A stretch of 35,354 nucleotides of DNA, from positions 1-35,354 of IMG/VR virus record IMGVR_UViG_3300011335_000393, one strand, 5' to 3'. The notes beneath the pieces are model-generated. The model was not told the DNA's origin, ran no database searches, and saw only the letters and a list, made by a program, of their open reading frames with translations. The position numbers and the translations under genes are program-made. This document shows, one piece after another, positions 20,621 through 29,625 of this stretch. Source of the stretch: a virus (Duplodnaviria; Caudoviricetes). Position 1 is the stretch's first letter. Every line of letters starts with the position of its first letter.

Positions 20621-20650
20621 GGCCACTCAAACAGTAAAGTGAGGTACAGT

Positions 20651-21772
20651 ATGCAACATAGTAAGATAGTCGGCGGTTCGACCGCCAAGCGCGTCATAGC
20701 CTGCCCCGGCAGCGTGGCGCTTGTGGACACAGTTCCACCAAAGCCCAGCAGCAGCTACGCCGACGAAGGCACGCTCCTGCATGACACTATAGCTTCTATA
20801 TTAGAACGTGACGTTGATCCGTACAGCATGGTCGGCACAACATACGCTGATAGCGTACTGACCGAAGCGTTGGTGGATGACAAGCTGGTTCCCGCGCTGC
20901 GTGCGCTGGACGAGATAGACCCAAAGGGGGAGATGACTTATGCTGTTGAGAGCCGGGTTGGTTTTGGTGATTTTCTACCTGACGTTTTTGGTTCTACCGA
21001 TCTTCTTGGTCGCATTGGTGATAGAGCGGTCGTTCTGGATTGGAAGTTTGGCGATGGCGTGGCTGTTGAAGCCACCGAAAACGCCCAATTACTCTTCTAC
21101 GCTGCGGCGGCTAGGCGCACGCCGGATACGACATGGGCTTTTGAAGGAGCCAAAGAAGTAGAACTGATCATTGTACAACCCCCGTTTGTAAAGCGGTGGG
21201 TGACAACGCTAGACCGCGTGGACGCGTTTGAGAAAGAACTTGCCGCTGCCGTCAAGATTGCTGCGCGGCCAGACGCGCCGTTGGCATCAGGCGACCATTG
21301 CAAGTGGTGCGCGGCCAAGCCTGTTTGCCCTATCATGACAGGCGCTGTAGACCGCGCACTGAAAGTCCAGATGGAAGCACTGCCTGTCGATCAGATAGCG
21401 CACTATTTGGAGCAGGCGCCCATGATTGAGGCGTTCATTAAGGATTTGCAGCAGTTGGCGCATGGGCTTTTGGAAGCGGGACAGAAAGTCCCCGGCTGGA
21501 AGCTGGTCAACAAACGTGCAACAAGGCAGTGGACAAATGAGGATAAGGCTGTAGCCTTCATGTCTGCTGCCGGCGTAGAGGCATGGGCTGATCCCAAGCC
21601 GCTGTCGCCTGCACAAGCGGAAAAGGCTTTGAAGAAAGCCAAGATAGAATTGCCAGCGGACTTAATCGTCGCTGTCTCAAGTGGTTCAACCCTTGCGCCG
21701 GAAAATGATTCCCGGCCAGCGGTTTTACAAATCGGACAGATGCTTACCAAAGCTATGTCCAAAATCCAGTAA
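20651..21772 (+). CDS. PD-(D/E)XK (Cas4-like, DUF2800-type) exonuclease
   Basis: HS..GGSTAKRVIACPGS, EGTLLH, FGSTD, DWKFGDG, NAQL..YA and HCKWC..KPVC; GAGGT RBS before ATG 20651. Confidence 0.88.
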   Translation: MQHSKIVGGSTAKRVIACPGSVALVDTVPPKPSSSYADEGTLLHDTIASILERDVDPYSMVGTTYADSVLTEALVDDKLVPALRALDEIDPKGEMTYAVESRVGFGDFLPDVFGSTDLLGRIGDRAVVLDWKFGDGVAVEATENAQLLFYAAAARRTPDTTWAFEGAKEVELIIVQPPFVKRWVTTLDRVDAFEKELAAAVKIAARPDAPLASGDHCKWCAAKPVCPIMTGAVDRALKVQMEALPVDQIAHYLEQAPMIEAFIKDLQQLAHGLLEAGQKVPGWKLVNKRATRQWTNEDKAVAFMSAAGVEAWADPKPLSPAQAEKALKKAKIELPADLIVAVSSGSTLAPENDSRPAVLQIGQMLTKAMSKIQ

Positions 21773-22454: not shown

Positions 22455-22466
22455 AGGGGCGTGAAA

Positions 22467-22491
22467 GCCGGGGCGTGTTGGGCGCTCCGGC
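22467..22491 (+). promoter_or_regulatory. GC-rich hairpin in polymerase leader
   Basis: GCCGGGGCG (22467-22475) / CGCTCCGGC (22483-22491); no U tract. Confidence 0.55.
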
Positions 22492-22516
22492 GAGTAGCGG
22501 AAGAGTGAGAACTTCT

Positions 22517-24472
22517 ATGTCTAAATTATGGGTTGACTTTGAAACGCGCAGCCGGTGCGACCTTCGCAGCCGCGGCGTGTACAACTACGCGCAGGACGCC
22601 AGCACTGACGTTCTGTGTATGTCATACGCATTTGATGACGAAGACGTGCAGACGTGGCTTCCCAGTGAGCCTTTCCCGCAGGCCGTCAAAGATCATAAAG
22701 GGCTGGTGTACGCGCACAACGCAGCGTTCGAGCGCCTGATATTCTGGTATGTCCTACAGGTCGAGTTTAAGCTGGAGCAGTTTTATTGCACCGCAGCACA
22801 AGCCCGTGGCAACTGCGCGCCGGGCAGCCTTGAGGATGTGGGCCGCTTCGCTGGCGCCACCATGAAGAAAGACCACCGTGGCGGACAACTGATCCGCCTG
22901 CTATCTATCCCGCAATCAGACGGCACATTCCGCGAAGACGCCAAGCTGATGCAGGAGATGGTTGACTATTGCGAACAGGACGTGCGGGCCATGCGTGCTA
23001 TAGCGCAGGCGCAGCGTCCGCTGTCCGACGAAGAGTTGGCAGACTACCATGTCAACGAGCGCATCAACGACCGCGGCGTGTTGCTTGACAGGTCATTGGC
23101 GCAGGCGGCTGTCCGCTACGCTGAAGCTGAACTGGCTGAGATACAAGACATTGTCGCAGAGATAACAAACGGCGAGATAAAGTCCGTCCGCAGCCCCAAG
23201 ATGAAGAAGTGGGTGCTGGACAGGGTAGGGCCGCAGGCGCTTGAACTGGCGACCATTTACAAGGACGGCGAACCTAAGCGAGCCATTGACAAGAACGTGC
23301 GGGCTAACTGGCTCACAATGGCAGGGGAAAATTCAGATGAAGTACCATCGGAAGTTGCGGAAGTCATCCAGTGCGCGGACGATCTGTGGGCATCGTCCGT
23401 TGCTAAATTCCAACGTGCGGCGGCGCTTGCTGACGAGGAGGATCATAAGGTTAGAGGAGCGTTCGTATTTTCAGGAGGAAGTGCTACTGGCCGTGCTTCA
23501 TCATTTGGGCTTCAAGTCCATAACTTCCCAAGAAAGTGTGCAGCCGACCCGGCATTAGTACGGCAGGCTATGGTGCGCGGCCACAGAATCGTTCCCGATC
23601 ATGGCCGCCGCGTAACTGACGTTCTAAAAGGTATGCTGCGCCCATCGCTGATGGCTGGCAAAGGCAAGCGGCTTGTGGTTGCCGATTGGGCAGCCATTGA
23701 AGCGCGGGTGACGCCGTGGGCGTCCAACAGTAGCTTTGGCGCAAACAAGCTGGACATCTTTGCCAAGGGCGAAGACGTGTACAAGCACAACGCTATGGCG
23801 ACATTCCATGTCGGTTACGGCGATGTCAACACAGACCAGCGCCAGATCGGCAAGGTTCAAGAGTTGGCGTGCGGCTTTGCCGGCGGCGTTGGTGCGTTCG
23901 CCAGCATGGGCCGCATCTACGGATTGCTGATGTCAGAGAGCGATGCAAAGCGCATGGTTGACGCATGGCGCAGGGCTAACAAGTGGGCTGTGCCTTACTG
24001 GTCTGGCCTTGAAGACACCTATATGCGTGCCATGCGAAATAAGAACCGTGAGTTTACAACGGGGCGCGTTACATATTTATTTGATGGATTGCATCTTTGG
24101 TATGCCCTTCCGTCTGGCCGTGTGTTATGTTATCCTTTCGCCCGTTTCGATGAGAAAGGTGACCTGACCTACGCGAAGGCTTCTTGGAAGCCAGCCGCTG
24201 ATGCTAAGGAGTGGCCAAGGGCGAGGCTATGGCGCGGTCTAGCGTGTGAAAACATCACACAGGCTATCGCCAACGACTTGCTGCGCTACGCCTTGCGGCA
24301 GTTGGACGATGTAGTTTTGCACATCCACGATGAAATCGTTTTGGAAGTGCCAGAAGAAGATGCAGAGGCTGCCGCAGCGCGGCTGGTGCAGATAATGTGT
24401 GAGCCGCCACCTTGGGCAGCAGGGCTTCCCCTGAACGCAGAGGTATCTATTATGGATCGTTATGGAAAATAA
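22517..24472 (+). CDS. DNA polymerase family A with 3'-5' exonuclease
   Basis: Exo DFET, HNAAFE, YCEQD; motif A DWAAIEAR, motif B RQIGKVQELACGF, motif C HIHDEI; ATG 22517. Confidence 0.95.
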   Translation: MSKLWVDFETRSRCDLRSRGVYNYAQDASTDVLCMSYAFDDEDVQTWLPSEPFPQAVKDHKGLVYAHNAAFERLIFWYVLQVEFKLEQFYCTAAQARGNCAPGSLEDVGRFAGATMKKDHRGGQLIRLLSIPQSDGTFREDAKLMQEMVDYCEQDVRAMRAIAQAQRPLSDEELADYHVNERINDRGVLLDRSLAQAAVRYAEAELAEIQDIVAEITNGEIKSVRSPKMKKWVLDRVGPQALELATIYKDGEPKRAIDKNVRANWLTMAGENSDEVPSEVAEVIQCADDLWASSVAKFQRAAALADEEDHKVRGAFVFSGGSATGRASSFGLQVHNFPRKCAADPALVRQAMVRGHRIVPDHGRRVTDVLKGMLRPSLMAGKGKRLVVADWAAIEARVTPWASNSSFGANKLDIFAKGEDVYKHNAMATFHVGYGDVNTDQRQIGKVQELACGFAGGVGAFASMGRIYGLLMSESDAKRMVDAWRRANKWAVPYWSGLEDTYMRAMRNKNREFTTGRVTYLFDGLHLWYALPSGRVLCYPFARFDEKGDLTYAKASWKPAADAKEWPRARLWRGLACENITQAIANDLLRYALRQLDDVVLHIHDEIVLEVPEEDAEAAAARLVQIMCEPPPWAAGLPLNAEVSIMDRYGK

Positions 24473-24482
24473 GGAGCAAGCG

Positions 24483-26831
24483 ATGAGTGAGGATCGCAAC
24501 AAGTTCATAGACTATATAGTTGGATTGGCCGCTGGTACAGTGGGCGAGACAGCTTTAGTCGTTCGTCAGAAGCCCACGCATGACAGCGATGGCAACCTGA
24601 TATACCACGCAGATGGTGCGCCAAAGGCAACCTTCCCTGCGTTCCTGCCCGAAAAGGCGCGCATGAAAGAAGGCGAGGCTTGGTATGTCAACACAGGCTC
24701 GTTCGTCGTTGACCGCTTTGTAGACGGCAAGCCCGCTGCTAAGTCGAGCAACGTCGAGTTTGTCCTGTTCATGATGCTGGATGACATCGGCACTAAGTCA
24801 AAGACGCCGCCGCTTGACCCGACATGGATACTGGAAACCAGCGAAGGTTCGTTCCAGTGGGGCTATGCGTTCAACGAACAGCCAAACAAGGGCGACTTCT
24901 GCGCTGCTATCAAAGCTATTGCAGATGCTGGCTACACTGATCCGGGCGCGACTAACGCTGTCCGCAACTGTCGTATTCCCGGCAGCGTCAACATGAAGCG
25001 CGGGCGCGGTGGCTTTCCTGCGCGGCTGGTCGAGTTTCACCCAGAGCTTGAATACACTTTAGAGCAGATTTGTAGTGCGCTGGGCGTCACACCAAAGGAA
25101 GGCGACACCGCAGAGTTTAAGGCTGTGCAGTTGCGCGACAGTGGGCTGGACAACGTCCTGACATGGTTGAGCGAAAAGAGCCTAGTCCTTAGCGCGCCCA
25201 ACACAGACGGCTGGTGCGCCATCGTCTGTCCTAACCATGAACATCACAGCGATGGCATGATCGAGGCGCGCTACAAGCCGCTGGATCGTTCGTTCTGTTG
25301 CTATCATGGGCACTGCCAAGACTTAGACAGCCGCACCTTCCTTGACTGGGTAGCGACTAACGGCGGCCCAAAGGTAACGCCGGGCTTGCGTGATGAGTTA
25401 ATCGCAGAGCGCATGGCATCCATGTATGACAAGATAGCGCCAACGGAAGCCTTCCCTGACGAAGCCGCAGCGCGCGTGCGTGAGGTCGAAAAGAAAGAAG
25501 CAGGACGGCTGGAACAAAGCGAGTGGTTTGATCGTTTCGCTTACATACAGTCTGATGACTGCTACTTTGACATGGTTACACGTCAAGAGATAGCCCGCAA
25601 CGTCTTCAACGCCCTGTTCCGTCACATTGACTGTCGTTCCATACACAACAAAAAACAGGCTGTGCGTGCGTCCGTCTATTACGATGAGCGCCGCCAAGAT
25701 CGCGGTGCGCCTGCACTGGCAGCGGTGACGTTTGCCGCCGGCGATGACGTTCTAGTAACGCGCGACGGATTGGTTTACGGCAACAGGTGGACAAATGCCC
25801 GTCCTGATGTAGCGGCCAGTGATGAGATTGCAGACCATGACGTTGAGACTTGGCTGGAGCATTGCCGCAATCTGGTCGTGGATGATGTCGAACTGGATCA
25901 CATCCTTGACGCTATGGCGTTCAAGATACAGCACCCTAACGTCAAGATTAACCATGCAATCCTAATTGGCGGCGACGAAGGCGTCGGCAAGGACAGTATG
26001 TTTCAGCCGTTCTTGTGGGCGCTTGGTGGTAAGCATTGGCGCAACAGATCAGTCATTGAGGCTGGCGGCTTGGACAGTCAATGGGGTTATTCGCTTGAGG
26101 CTGAAGTGGTCATCCTAAACGAACTAAAGGAACCAGAGGCGCGAGAGCGCCGCGCTATGGCTAACAAGCTAAAGCCACTCATCGCTGCGCCGCCTGAGAC
26201 GCTGTCCGTCAACCGTAAGGGGATGCACCCCTATGAGTTGGTCAATCGCCTAATGGTGGTTGCCTACACGAATGACCCGCTGCCGATCACATTGCCAACA
26301 CAAGATCGTCGATGGTTCTGCGTCTGGACACGCGCGCCGCGCATGACAACAGCAGCAGCTAATGCACTGTGGGCATGGTATGAGGCCGGCGGCTATGAGA
26401 AGTGCGCCGCTTGGCTGCACCAGCGCGACGTGTCGGCGTTCAACCCAGCGGCTGCGCCGCCAGTGACCGAATGGAAGCTGAACATGGTTGAGCATGGCAT
26501 GAGCGTAGCCGAAAGCTACCTTGTGGACATGATGCGGCTGCGGTCGGGCGTCTTTGCCTCTGGTGTCATTGGCGGGCCGTTCCATCGTATCTGTGACGCG
26601 CTGGCGATTAACGTGCCAGCCGGTGTTAAAGTCCCGCAAGCTGCGCTGCTTCATGCGTTGAAGGAAGCGGGCTGGGTTGACATGGGCCGCATTAACTCAA
26701 AAGATCACCCAAATAAGAAGCATATATTTGTCGCGCCTGATCTTGTTAAGAAACACGGCAAGTCAGACTTGCGCCGCATGGCGGAAGAATTGCCTAAGTC
26801 GAGCATTATGCCAAATTTAGGCAAGAATTGA
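24483..26831 (+). CDS. Primase-helicase (RepB-like primase, Zn finger, DUF5906-like P-loop NTPase)
   Basis: MMLDDIG, LETSEGSFQWGY, R.PGS; CPNHEHH..CYHGHC; GGDEGVGKD, ILNE, DRRW; AAGGAG RBS before ATG 24483. Confidence 0.88.
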   Translation: MSEDRNKFIDYIVGLAAGTVGETALVVRQKPTHDSDGNLIYHADGAPKATFPAFLPEKARMKEGEAWYVNTGSFVVDRFVDGKPAAKSSNVEFVLFMMLDDIGTKSKTPPLDPTWILETSEGSFQWGYAFNEQPNKGDFCAAIKAIADAGYTDPGATNAVRNCRIPGSVNMKRGRGGFPARLVEFHPELEYTLEQICSALGVTPKEGDTAEFKAVQLRDSGLDNVLTWLSEKSLVLSAPNTDGWCAIVCPNHEHHSDGMIEARYKPLDRSFCCYHGHCQDLDSRTFLDWVATNGGPKVTPGLRDELIAERMASMYDKIAPTEAFPDEAAARVREVEKKEAGRLEQSEWFDRFAYIQSDDCYFDMVTRQEIARNVFNALFRHIDCRSIHNKKQAVRASVYYDERRQDRGAPALAAVTFAAGDDVLVTRDGLVYGNRWTNARPDVAASDEIADHDVETWLEHCRNLVVDDVELDHILDAMAFKIQHPNVKINHAILIGGDEGVGKDSMFQPFLWALGGKHWRNRSVIEAGGLDSQWGYSLEAEVVILNELKEPEARERRAMANKLKPLIAAPPETLSVNRKGMHPYELVNRLMVVAYTNDPLPITLPTQDRRWFCVWTRAPRMTTAAANALWAWYEAGGYEKCAAWLHQRDVSAFNPAAAPPVTEWKLNMVEHGMSVAESYLVDMMRLRSGVFASGVIGGPFHRICDALAINVPAGVKVPQAALLHALKEAGWVDMGRINSKDHPNKKHIFVAPDLVKKHGKSDLRRMAEELPKSSIMPNLGKN

Positions 26832-26857
26832 CAACTGATATTGTGCGATGATATACT
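26828..26857 (+). promoter_or_regulatory. Near-consensus sigma70 promoter with extended -10 (drives candidate sRNA)
   Basis: TTGACA (26828-26833)-N18-TATACT (26852-26857), with TG at 26849-26850. Confidence 0.75.
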
Positions 26858-26863
26858 GATAAA

Positions 26864-26928
26864 GTCGGTGATGCTCCGCTGACCTTTTTAAGCCGCCGGT
26901 GTCTCACTCCACCGGCGGCTTTTATTTT
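26864..26928 (+). ncRNA. Candidate two-hairpin anti-Shine-Dalgarno small RNA
   Basis: Predicted start coincides with hairpin 1 GTCGGTG-ATGCTC-CGCTGAC. Hairpin 2 is AAGCCGCCGGTG-TCTCACTC-CACCGGCGGCTT plus U tail. Loops are complementary to phage RBSs. Confidence 0.65.
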
Positions 26929-26930: not shown

Positions 26931-27106
26931 TCGTCCCATGCTTCTTCAGCGTCTAAGATCAGTTCGCAGGGTGGGTATCGCAGATTGCTGACTTCAATGT
27001 CGGATATTACCCCCATAAAGGCTAGATGCTCCATCAAGCGGTAGGCCAGCGTAGCCTCTGCGCGTTTGTCGTAGTCCTCAAAGGCTTCTGCTTCTTCATC
27101 GGTCAT
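26927..27106 (-). CDS. Hypothetical acidic protein
   Basis: MTDEEAEAFEDY..., ATGA-coupled start at 27106. Confidence 0.7.
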   Translation of the reverse strand: MTDEEAEAFEDYDKRAEATLAYRLMEHLAFMGVISDIEVSNLRYPPCELILDAEEAWDE

Positions 27107-27369: not shown

Positions 27370-27569
27370 TGGTTTTGCTCCTCTAAATTAAGTTTGTATA
27401 TTTTCCCCGGTCTAGTCCCTTCAGGCACAGCGATCTCAAACGAACCCGGAAGCGCACGCCAATGCGTCCCATCTGGTATTCTGGATAGCGTTGCCATAGT
27501 GGTCTTGCCAGCCGCAGGGCTATCGCCGTAGTCGCGGGTCGTAACCATAGTGCATCTATATTCGGTCAT
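27366..27569 (-). CDS. Hypothetical protein
   Basis: MTEYRCTMV..., AAGGA RBS, ATGA overlap at 27566-27569. Confidence 0.7.
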   Translation of the reverse strand: MTEYRCTMVTTRDYGDSPAAGKTTMATLSRIPDGTHWRALPGSFEIAVPEGTRPGKIYKLNLEEQNQ

Positions 27570-28190: not shown

Positions 28191-28318
28191 TTGCCTTGCT
28201 CCCGTTCTTTGCGGCGCTCTGCAAACGTCTTTCCGTCTAGCCCGCGCAGAGGCCATGCGCTTTCGGACGATACGCGATATTTGCGCCCTAAAGGGGCGGC
28301 TTGGGGTGTCTTAATCAT
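28187..28318 (-). CDS. Hypothetical 43-aa protein (not in ORF track)
   Basis: MIKTPQAAPLGRKYRVSSESAWPLRGLDGKTFAERRKEREQGK; GGAG upstream; GTGA-coupled downstream. Confidence 0.65.
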   Translation of the reverse strand: MIKTPQAAPLGRKYRVSSESAWPLRGLDGKTFAERRKEREQGK

Positions 28319-28661: not shown

Positions 28662-28816
28662 TAGTTTTGCTCCTTCTTGATTGTTAGCAGTTCGCGGCTT
28701 TCGCGGATCCATGCCCTACGGAACCAATGCCTTTCGGCATTTGTGCGCCATAGGATAAACAAGGTCGTGATTTGCATGGCTAGCAGCGTCACGATTGCGT
28801 ATTTCTCAGGTGTCAT
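28661..28816 (-). CDS. Small membrane protein, 51 aa (not in ORF track)
   Basis: MTPEKYAIVTLLAMQITTLFILWRTNAERHWFRRAW...; GGAGG RBS. Confidence 0.7.
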   Translation of the reverse strand: MTPEKYAIVTLLAMQITTLFILWRTNAERHWFRRAWIRESRELLTIKKEQN

Positions 28817-29600: not shown

Positions 29601-29625
29601 AGTGTCTCACTCCTATTGATTGTGG

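Follow-up and report, generated by a model that had tools for sequence, protein, structure and literature searches.

We analysed the viral record IMGVR_UViG_3300011335_000393 (Duplodnaviria; Caudoviricetes) over its whole stretch of 35,354 nucleotides (nt), hereafter called the window, and in particular a predicted two-hairpin small RNA (sRNA) directly behind the stop codon of a primase-like gene, together with the sites at which its two loops may pair with the starts of replication and early genes. The window is the apparently complete genome of a P22-like tailed phage: its two ends share an overlap of 185 nt with 182 identical positions, so that it appears circularly complete. The virion genes are carried by the + strand, and the replication arm comprises a DUF2800 exonuclease gene, a gene of 220 amino acids (aa) that is, by position only, a candidate for the single-stranded DNA-binding protein (SSB), a family A DNA polymerase gene and the primase-like gene. 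Between primase and terminase lies a leftward cluster of small genes without known function, labelled here as early by position and size. Gene starts were set by our own heuristics, and the coordinates of the features are collected in Table 1.

An initial annotation of this DNA had described a bipartite site, GAGYA-N6-GAGTGAG (box 1 and box 2), at the starts of the polymerase and primase genes, and had proposed that the two loops of the sRNA contact the two boxes separately and block translation of both enzymes. To follow these elements we gathered relatives by primase homology. We considered as in-group the relatives with at least 64% identity (111 unique primase ends), and the outgroup was represented by 129 primase ends.

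The predicted sRNA unit

The sRNA locus folds with a minimum free energy of -33.4 (z -6.2) into two hairpins followed by a U-tract, and in relatives the predicted length of the RNA is 59-86 nt (median 65). At the sequence level the unit has its own predicted promoter and an intrinsic terminator. The -35 element TTGACA overlaps the primase stop, and the promoter pattern TTGnnn-N14/15-TGnTA, itself derived from in-group sequences, was present at 104 of the 111 in-group primase ends, at none of the 129 outgroup ends and in none of 444 control windows. Among 31 aligned terminator hairpins, 7 of the 12 pairs had two-sided changes, with a covariation score reached by 0 of 500 shuffles, a score that is inflated by the relatedness of the sequences. 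The core of loop 2, CUCAC, was kept in 68 of 69 unique hairpins (chosen by a loop pattern). By this conservation, the sRNA unit is under selection.

On the + strand, G.U wobble pairs exceeded A.C pairs by 75 to 3 in hairpin 1 and by 6 to 0 in hairpin 2, and because of this bias we read the sRNA from the + strand. Another possibility is that the sites bind a protein (a translational repressor or a binder of single-stranded DNA hairpins), for which the - strand of the locus, at the 3′ end of the early messenger RNA (mRNA), would be a decoy. Both words, GGAGCA and GAGUGAG, do stand in hairpin loops of the - strand, and the early operon is directed toward the locus in most relatives; however, wobble pairs and U-tract speak for the + strand, the unit persists in five genomes without a leftward operon after the primase, and no candidate family of RNA-binding proteins was found when the window open reading frames (ORFs) were scanned with PHROGs and Pfam. 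We hold such a decoy to be very improbable.

Assembled contigs of relatives are present in two RNA runs (share 0.06), and these carry no information on the ends, strand or level of the sRNA. No cultured phage carrying the unit was found; the closest annotated record, MW202483, has a primase that is 52% identical and is without the unit.

Some further observations concern the unit and its surroundings. In close relatives the promoter spacer (26828-26851) is of several types, many of them with short palindromes (CAACCA-N2-TGGTTG, CTGATATCAG), possibly operators differing between phages. A second promoter-like site (26805-26834, - strand; TTGTCA-18-CATAAT, 10/12) overlaps the sRNA promoter and is directed antisense into the primase 3′ end; recorded with it is an 8-bp inverted repeat (TTGCCTAA/TTAGGCAA) just upstream of the -35. 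Four relatives (L031, L044, L046 and L077) have a three-hairpin form of the sRNA with an extra single-stranded CCUCUU stretch, and these lineages have few GGAGCA Shine-Dalgarno (SD) sequences. Five genomes (G016, G018, G021, G022 and G023) carry their virion and early arms in inverted orientation with respect to the replication arm, together with a hairpin 1 that has a different C-rich loop (ACCCCAAACCA, CCCCCACCCUA), for which no clear targets were seen. In the outgroup record L292, tandem repeats of about 22 nt (GAGAGCG..TGCCTGCAAAAA) lie behind the primase stop, where the sRNA would be.

Loop 2 at the replication starts

The bipartite pattern was found where it had been annotated, at the polymerase (GAGTAGCGGAAGAGTGAG, 22492-22509) and at the primase (GAGCAAGCGATGAGTGAG, 24474-24491), and nowhere else in the window. 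Against these 2 matches 0.01 were expected, and none of 100 shuffled sequences gave as many, for a pattern derived from those same two sites. In 31 genomes the strict pattern occurred 26 times, always on the + strand and always in the polymerase leader or at the primase start. The pairing of box 2 with loop 2 also came out as described (8/8 at the polymerase; 7 Watson-Crick pairs plus one G.U at the primase). Two points had escaped the annotation. Box 1 alone is unspecific, since the window has 23 occurrences of GAGTA and 41 of GAGCA, and at both starts box 2 forms part of a hairpin loop above a 5-bp stem.

In the polymerase leader the stem of this target hairpin was exchanged compensatorily (RGAAG/CUUCU, GGAUG/CAUCC, GGUUG/CAACC), and AGUGAG was kept in 77 of 81 unique leaders, with three of the four losses in phages having a changed or vanished seed. 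At the primase, codons 2-5 (AGT GAG GAT CGC) showed no synonymous change (105/105, 107/107, 103/103 and 108/108); as a control, 1 of 44 columns reaches 98%. Of 95 primase/sRNA pairs, 92 keep AGUGAG, 2 from one lineage combine the loop CCUCAAU with the site AUUGAGG, and 1 has lost both loop and site. Covariation in relatives, which had been named as a check, is therefore present for loop 2 as one compensatory lineage and one joint loss. The AUUGAGG change also turns a Ser of the primase into Ile. When we scanned for the variant site (71 + 4 viral and 7 metagenome matches), the matches at this primase start were those of the AUUGAGG lineage (L187, L210 and L590); a further match, L589, lies at the start of the same primase family on a fragment without its sRNA. 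ATTGAGR is found near starts in 16 of the 31 genomes, and hence it was counted just as a change at a homologous position. L232 has its site shifted to a position ahead of the primase ATG, with an 11-nt match to the loop.

AGUGAGG also serves as the exonuclease SD in many relatives. Among 149 AGTGAGR sites in the 31 genomes, 71 were at replication starts, 11 at early ones (at least one of these matches being the sRNA's own antisense) and 5 at late ones; in the three genomes whose seed has changed or been lost, replication and early starts were without AGTGAGR. Of the 133 unique AGTGAG contexts in early regions, 103 stand ahead of a start, vs a background of 17%. That box 2 (AGUGAG) is the target of loop 2 is well supported by what the sequences of the relatives offer, namely the compensatory change, the joint loss, the frozen codons and the G.U strand bias. 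The annotation is supported in giving this pairing to both replication starts, while the block of polymerase and primase translation would be its presumed effect. Both enzymes carry box 2, but the set of putative targets is much wider than these two and includes the exonuclease and early genes.

In the L159/G024 lineage neither loop 2 nor any of the three AGUGAG sites is left; 8 nt of its 5′ loop UUUCCCCUCC match the primase SD, and 6 nt match the polymerase hairpin loop. A seed switch in this lineage (UUUCCCCUCC vs AGGGGAAA at the primase, GAGGGG at the polymerase) is suggestive; we did not count it because its words are common at starts (GGGGAA in 14 and GAGGGG in 11 of the 31 genomes).

The pairing could be real and nevertheless take place in cis, or as part of the 3′ end of the replication mRNA, with the terminator loop turned back onto ribosome-binding sites of the same transcript, or it could activate the primase by opening the hairpin that hides its AUG. 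Hairpin 2 is indeed the operon terminator, three of the four operon genes carry a site, and the primase AUG is within the target stem. We think this improbable, considering that the sRNA unit has its own conserved promoter-like site, that the many sites on early genes of the opposite strand would need action in trans, and that at most sites, which overlap the SD, ribosomes should be blocked by pairing.

Loop 1 and the early genes

Among the SDs with GGAG in 25 genomes, GGAGCA was found in 80 of 189 early vs 3 of 117 late ones; in the outgroup it was found in 11 of 381 (118 regions). Its rank among hexamers was 1 of 4054 for the distant in-group and 5 of 4075 for the close one, and 273 for loci with a variant loop 1. 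The enrichment of CGAATT is mostly not linked to starts (23/204 contexts). In the 180 early protein families with GGAG-SDs, the two commonest continuations were CA (61) and TG (30), which complement loop 1 and loop 2, respectively. By these counts, the main complement of loop 1 lies in the early cluster.

The primase SD reads GGAGCA in 41 of 60 records with the loop UGCUCC vs 5 of 27 with other loops. Covariation between loop 1 and its sites is an association only. At the primase, box 1 coincides with the SD and fits loop 1, so that the second contact proposed for this gene is possible, though perhaps not required, with both sites present in 41 of 60 records.

Box 1 at the polymerase

In the polymerase leader GAGUA is the 3′ strand of an internal loop, facing GAAA across a long leader hairpin. 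AGUA/GAA is the sequence of the sarcin-ricin motif (PMC1865062), and it stands between flanking helices as a sequence pattern in leaders that were chosen with that pattern. The base flanking AGUA follows the leader's own 5′ strand, being a purine with GAAAG (62/62) and a pyrimidine with GAACG (19/19); 8 of 81 leaders have AAGUA instead of GAGUA, and the element was also seen in 2 of 64 leaders from the outgroup, where the sRNA is missing. One clade, whose leaders read UAGUA, is also without the UGCUC loop, which counts against a cis element at this place. No need for both loops on the polymerase mRNA, of the RNAIII-rot type, was found, since box 1 varies independently of loop 1. The hairpin could be a protein-binding or processing element in its own right. 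We also observed that it keeps its place after the stop of the 220-aa gene where other genes have been inserted ahead of the polymerase (for example in L016, L022, L236 and L252), and that some phages have extra sequence within, or in place of, its apex.

It is on this point that the initial annotation was not borne out. That polymerase and primase are each bound by two simultaneous contacts, as RNAIII binds rot, would fit the exactly equal spacing of the boxes in the window, the GGAGCA counts at the primase SD and the UAGUA-leader clade. However, box 1 of the polymerase pairs over just 5 bp with a wobble and belongs to the cis-covarying AGUA/GAA loop, which is also present in phages without the sRNA, 19 of 60 primase SDs are without GGAGCA though loop 1 is intact, and one molecule would barely span both boxes by a rough geometric estimate. 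Read across the relatives, box 1 is two different things and not one element; two contacts at both genes are unlikely in our judgement, and a double contact is possible at the primase, and there alone.

The two seeds across genes and genomes

The RNA has conserved unpaired seeds complementary to translation-initiation regions elsewhere. In nine protein families common to in-group and outgroup, a loop site was present in 54 of 142 leaders of phages with the sRNA vs 3 of 124 without it, and in 20 families some members have a loop-1 site and others a loop-2 site. In the window a site was found at 8 of 22 early or replication starts vs 0 of 28 late rows. A ranking of starts by duplex energy, which had also been suggested, went in the same direction within the window: the top 8 of 52 starts all belong to early or replication genes, and ranks 10 and 11 are not start codons.

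These comparisons bear most on coincidence, that is, on C-rich loops matching purine-rich SDs by chance or through a host preference for anti-SD-like words. The seeds are short (6-8 nt) and anti-SD-like, and the pattern was defined after the fact; but the words are nearly absent from late genes of the same genomes and from homologous early genes of the outgroup, and chance leaves the frozen codons and the compensatory change unexplained. Coincidence, largely refuted by the comparison within the same families, seems to us hardly credible.

Proposed mechanism

We consider it probable that the conserved unit is a small RNA repressing the translation of replication and early genes, mostly with one loop-site contact per gene. 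The finding is broader than the bipartite site of the initial annotation, namely a likely two-seed phage sRNA regulon.

Several points weigh against this interpretation. Transcription of the RNA, repression and its sign are inferred, not observed. The genomes are related to one another, hence counts across relatives are not independent. The clean compensatory change of loop 2 is a single lineage on the tree, two records have the loop CCUCACC with the site unchanged, one polymerase leader lost AGUGAG for no known reason, and in many leaders CCUCACU is faced by AGUGAGA, which leaves a core of just 6 bp. A compensatory change of loop 1 was not found: AAACUCC variants did not gain GGAGUU, and L061 keeps GGAGCA SDs. 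Finally, 770 of 1033 in-group early ORFs, about three quarters, have neither site.

In the proposed mechanism the sRNA would be transcribed from a host-type promoter and would also be made as the 3′ end of the replication mRNA. Loop 2 (CUCACU core) would kiss the AGUGAG hairpin loop at polymerase and primase and lock the start region, and it would also cover AGUGAGG/GGAGUGAG SDs, while loop 1 (UGCUCC) would cover the GGAGCA SDs of early genes. We prefer repression because most sites overlap the SD. The sRNA might build up with time and genome copy number and act as a negative-feedback timer or copy-number brake, by which early and replication proteins would be shut off and virion genes would escape.

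Proteins are usually held responsible for switching off the early genes of phages. We give about an even chance to the wider proposal of an RNA-only off-switch for early genes in an apparently non-integrating phage, in which a 65-nt RNA would read two SD dialects, dozens of unrelated early genes would have rewritten their SDs to either loop, hairpins would kiss at replication genes and virion genes would avoid both words. If true, gene leaders would have been adapted to an RNA regulator, and the loop of a terminator would serve as a seed. The predicted multi-gene self-regulon has natural allele pairs (CCUCACU/AGUGAGG vs CCUCAAU/AUUGAGG), which make it testable in reporters without culturing the phage.

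Features and remaining content of the window

Table 1. Positions of the genes, the predicted sRNA and its putative target sites in the window
Feature	Position	Strand	Basis or remark
DUF2800 / PD-(D/E)XK exonuclease gene	20651..21772	+	profile matches
Family A DNA polymerase gene	22517..24472	+	profile matches
Primase-like gene	24483..26831	+	weak RepB primase N-terminal match, DUF5906 domain
Predicted two-hairpin sRNA	26863..26927	+	ends inferred; 3′ hairpin doubles as replication-operon terminator
Loop 1 seed AUGCUC(C)	26871..26877	+	complement of GGAGCA SDs
Loop 2 seed UCUCACUC(C), in terminator hairpin	26902..26910	+	complement of AGUGAG / GGAGUGAG
Predicted sigma70-type sRNA promoter	26828..26857	+	TTGACA, 18 nt, extended-10 TG, TATACT; 11/12 consensus
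Polymerase target hairpin GGAAG-AGUGAGAA-CUUCU, directly before ATG	22499..22516	+	compensatory stems, AGUGAG kept
Primase target hairpin GCGAU-GAGUGAGG-AUCGC, start codon in stem	24480..24497	+	folding, frozen codons
Putative loop-2 site AGUGAGG, SD of DUF2800 exonuclease	20638..20644	+	complementarity to loop 2
Putative loop-2 site GGAGUGAGACAC, SD of early gene starting 29600	29602..29613	-	12-nt complement of 26899-26910
Primase SD GGAGCA, possible loop-1 site	24473..24478	+	
Putative loop-1 site GGAGCA, SD of early gene starting 28661	28668..28673	-	
Putative loop-1 site GGAGCA, SD of early gene starting 28190	28197..28202	-	followed by AGUGAG over GTG start
Putative loop-1 site GGAGCA, SD of early gene starting 27369	27376..27381	-	
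Putative loop-1 site GGAGCAU before possible start 27016	27026..27032	-	start uncertain
Polymerase-leader hairpin, holds polymerase box 1	22460..22498	+	predicted AGUA/GAA (loop E, sarcin-ricin type) internal loop

Among the window ORFs scanned (45 with PHROGs, 29 with Pfam) there was neither an integrase nor a repressor gene, and neither transfer RNA nor transfer-messenger RNA was found in the window. The host was not assignable, as the GTDB matches sit in bins of metagenome-assembled genomes of conflicting taxa. Directly 3′ of the portal gene lies a gene of the DUF5856 / 'starvation-inducible transcriptional regulator' family (759-1121, + strand).

Comparison with known systems

A description of this RNA was not found in the literature searched (subscription papers lay outside the search); the text supplements 3-9 of PMC10690425 gave no match, and its supplements 1-2, also outside the search, may hold the motif. 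With Rfam, nothing in the whole window was found at E<=1, just sub-threshold matches on the two elements. Precisely, the C4 model had no match in the window, and the ar14 model scored 20.1 bits, below its gathering cut-off of 58.8 bits, which places the sRNA outside the cuckoo family. Because no Rfam match reached the threshold we counted the sRNA as a member of none of the RNAIII/OxyS, CI/c4 and cuckoo families.

RNAIII of S. aureus (rot, coa) and OxyS of E. coli (fhlA) repress through their loops, and RNAIII-rot needs two loop-loop contacts (PMC8383071). The phage sRNA resembles them in the C-rich hairpin loops of a trans-encoded RNA, in the G-rich ribosome-binding site (RBS) regions addressed and in a predicted loop-loop contact on a target hairpin; in contrast, RNAIII and OxyS are host RNAs, while the two loops of the phage sRNA would mostly serve different genes and its targets would be the phage's own.

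The c4 antisense RNA of phages P1 and P7 has a two-site mechanism. It is among the phage antisense RNAs listed in PMC2864571, and the CI RNA of phage P4 terminates transcription at seqA/seqC, within a single leader of a temperate element (PMC4825925). As in P4 CI and P1/P7 c4, a small phage RNA would silence its own replication genes by short complementarity; unlike P4 CI, it would use many separate RBS sites, and integrase and repressor were not found among the window ORFs scanned.

The cuckoo RNAs (ar14, CcsR/RSs0680) have adjacent hairpins with CCUCCUCCC in each loop (PMC4615179). The likeness consists of variable stems, fixed anti-SD-like loops and a terminator-like last hairpin, but the phage-encoded RNA has two different seeds, UGCUCC and CCUCACUCC, and not a repeated CCUCCUCCC. 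There is precedent for terminator loops in sRNA action (PMC11979758).

Among phage RNAs, the trans-acting PreS, VpdS and 24B_1 and the antisense sar, OOP and aQ are described as acting on host genes or on single phage genes (PMC12197685). The sRNA described here is like all of these in being a phage small RNA that would tune replication or a developmental switch, and differs from them in that it would reach a multi-gene set of early and replication genes through their SDs.

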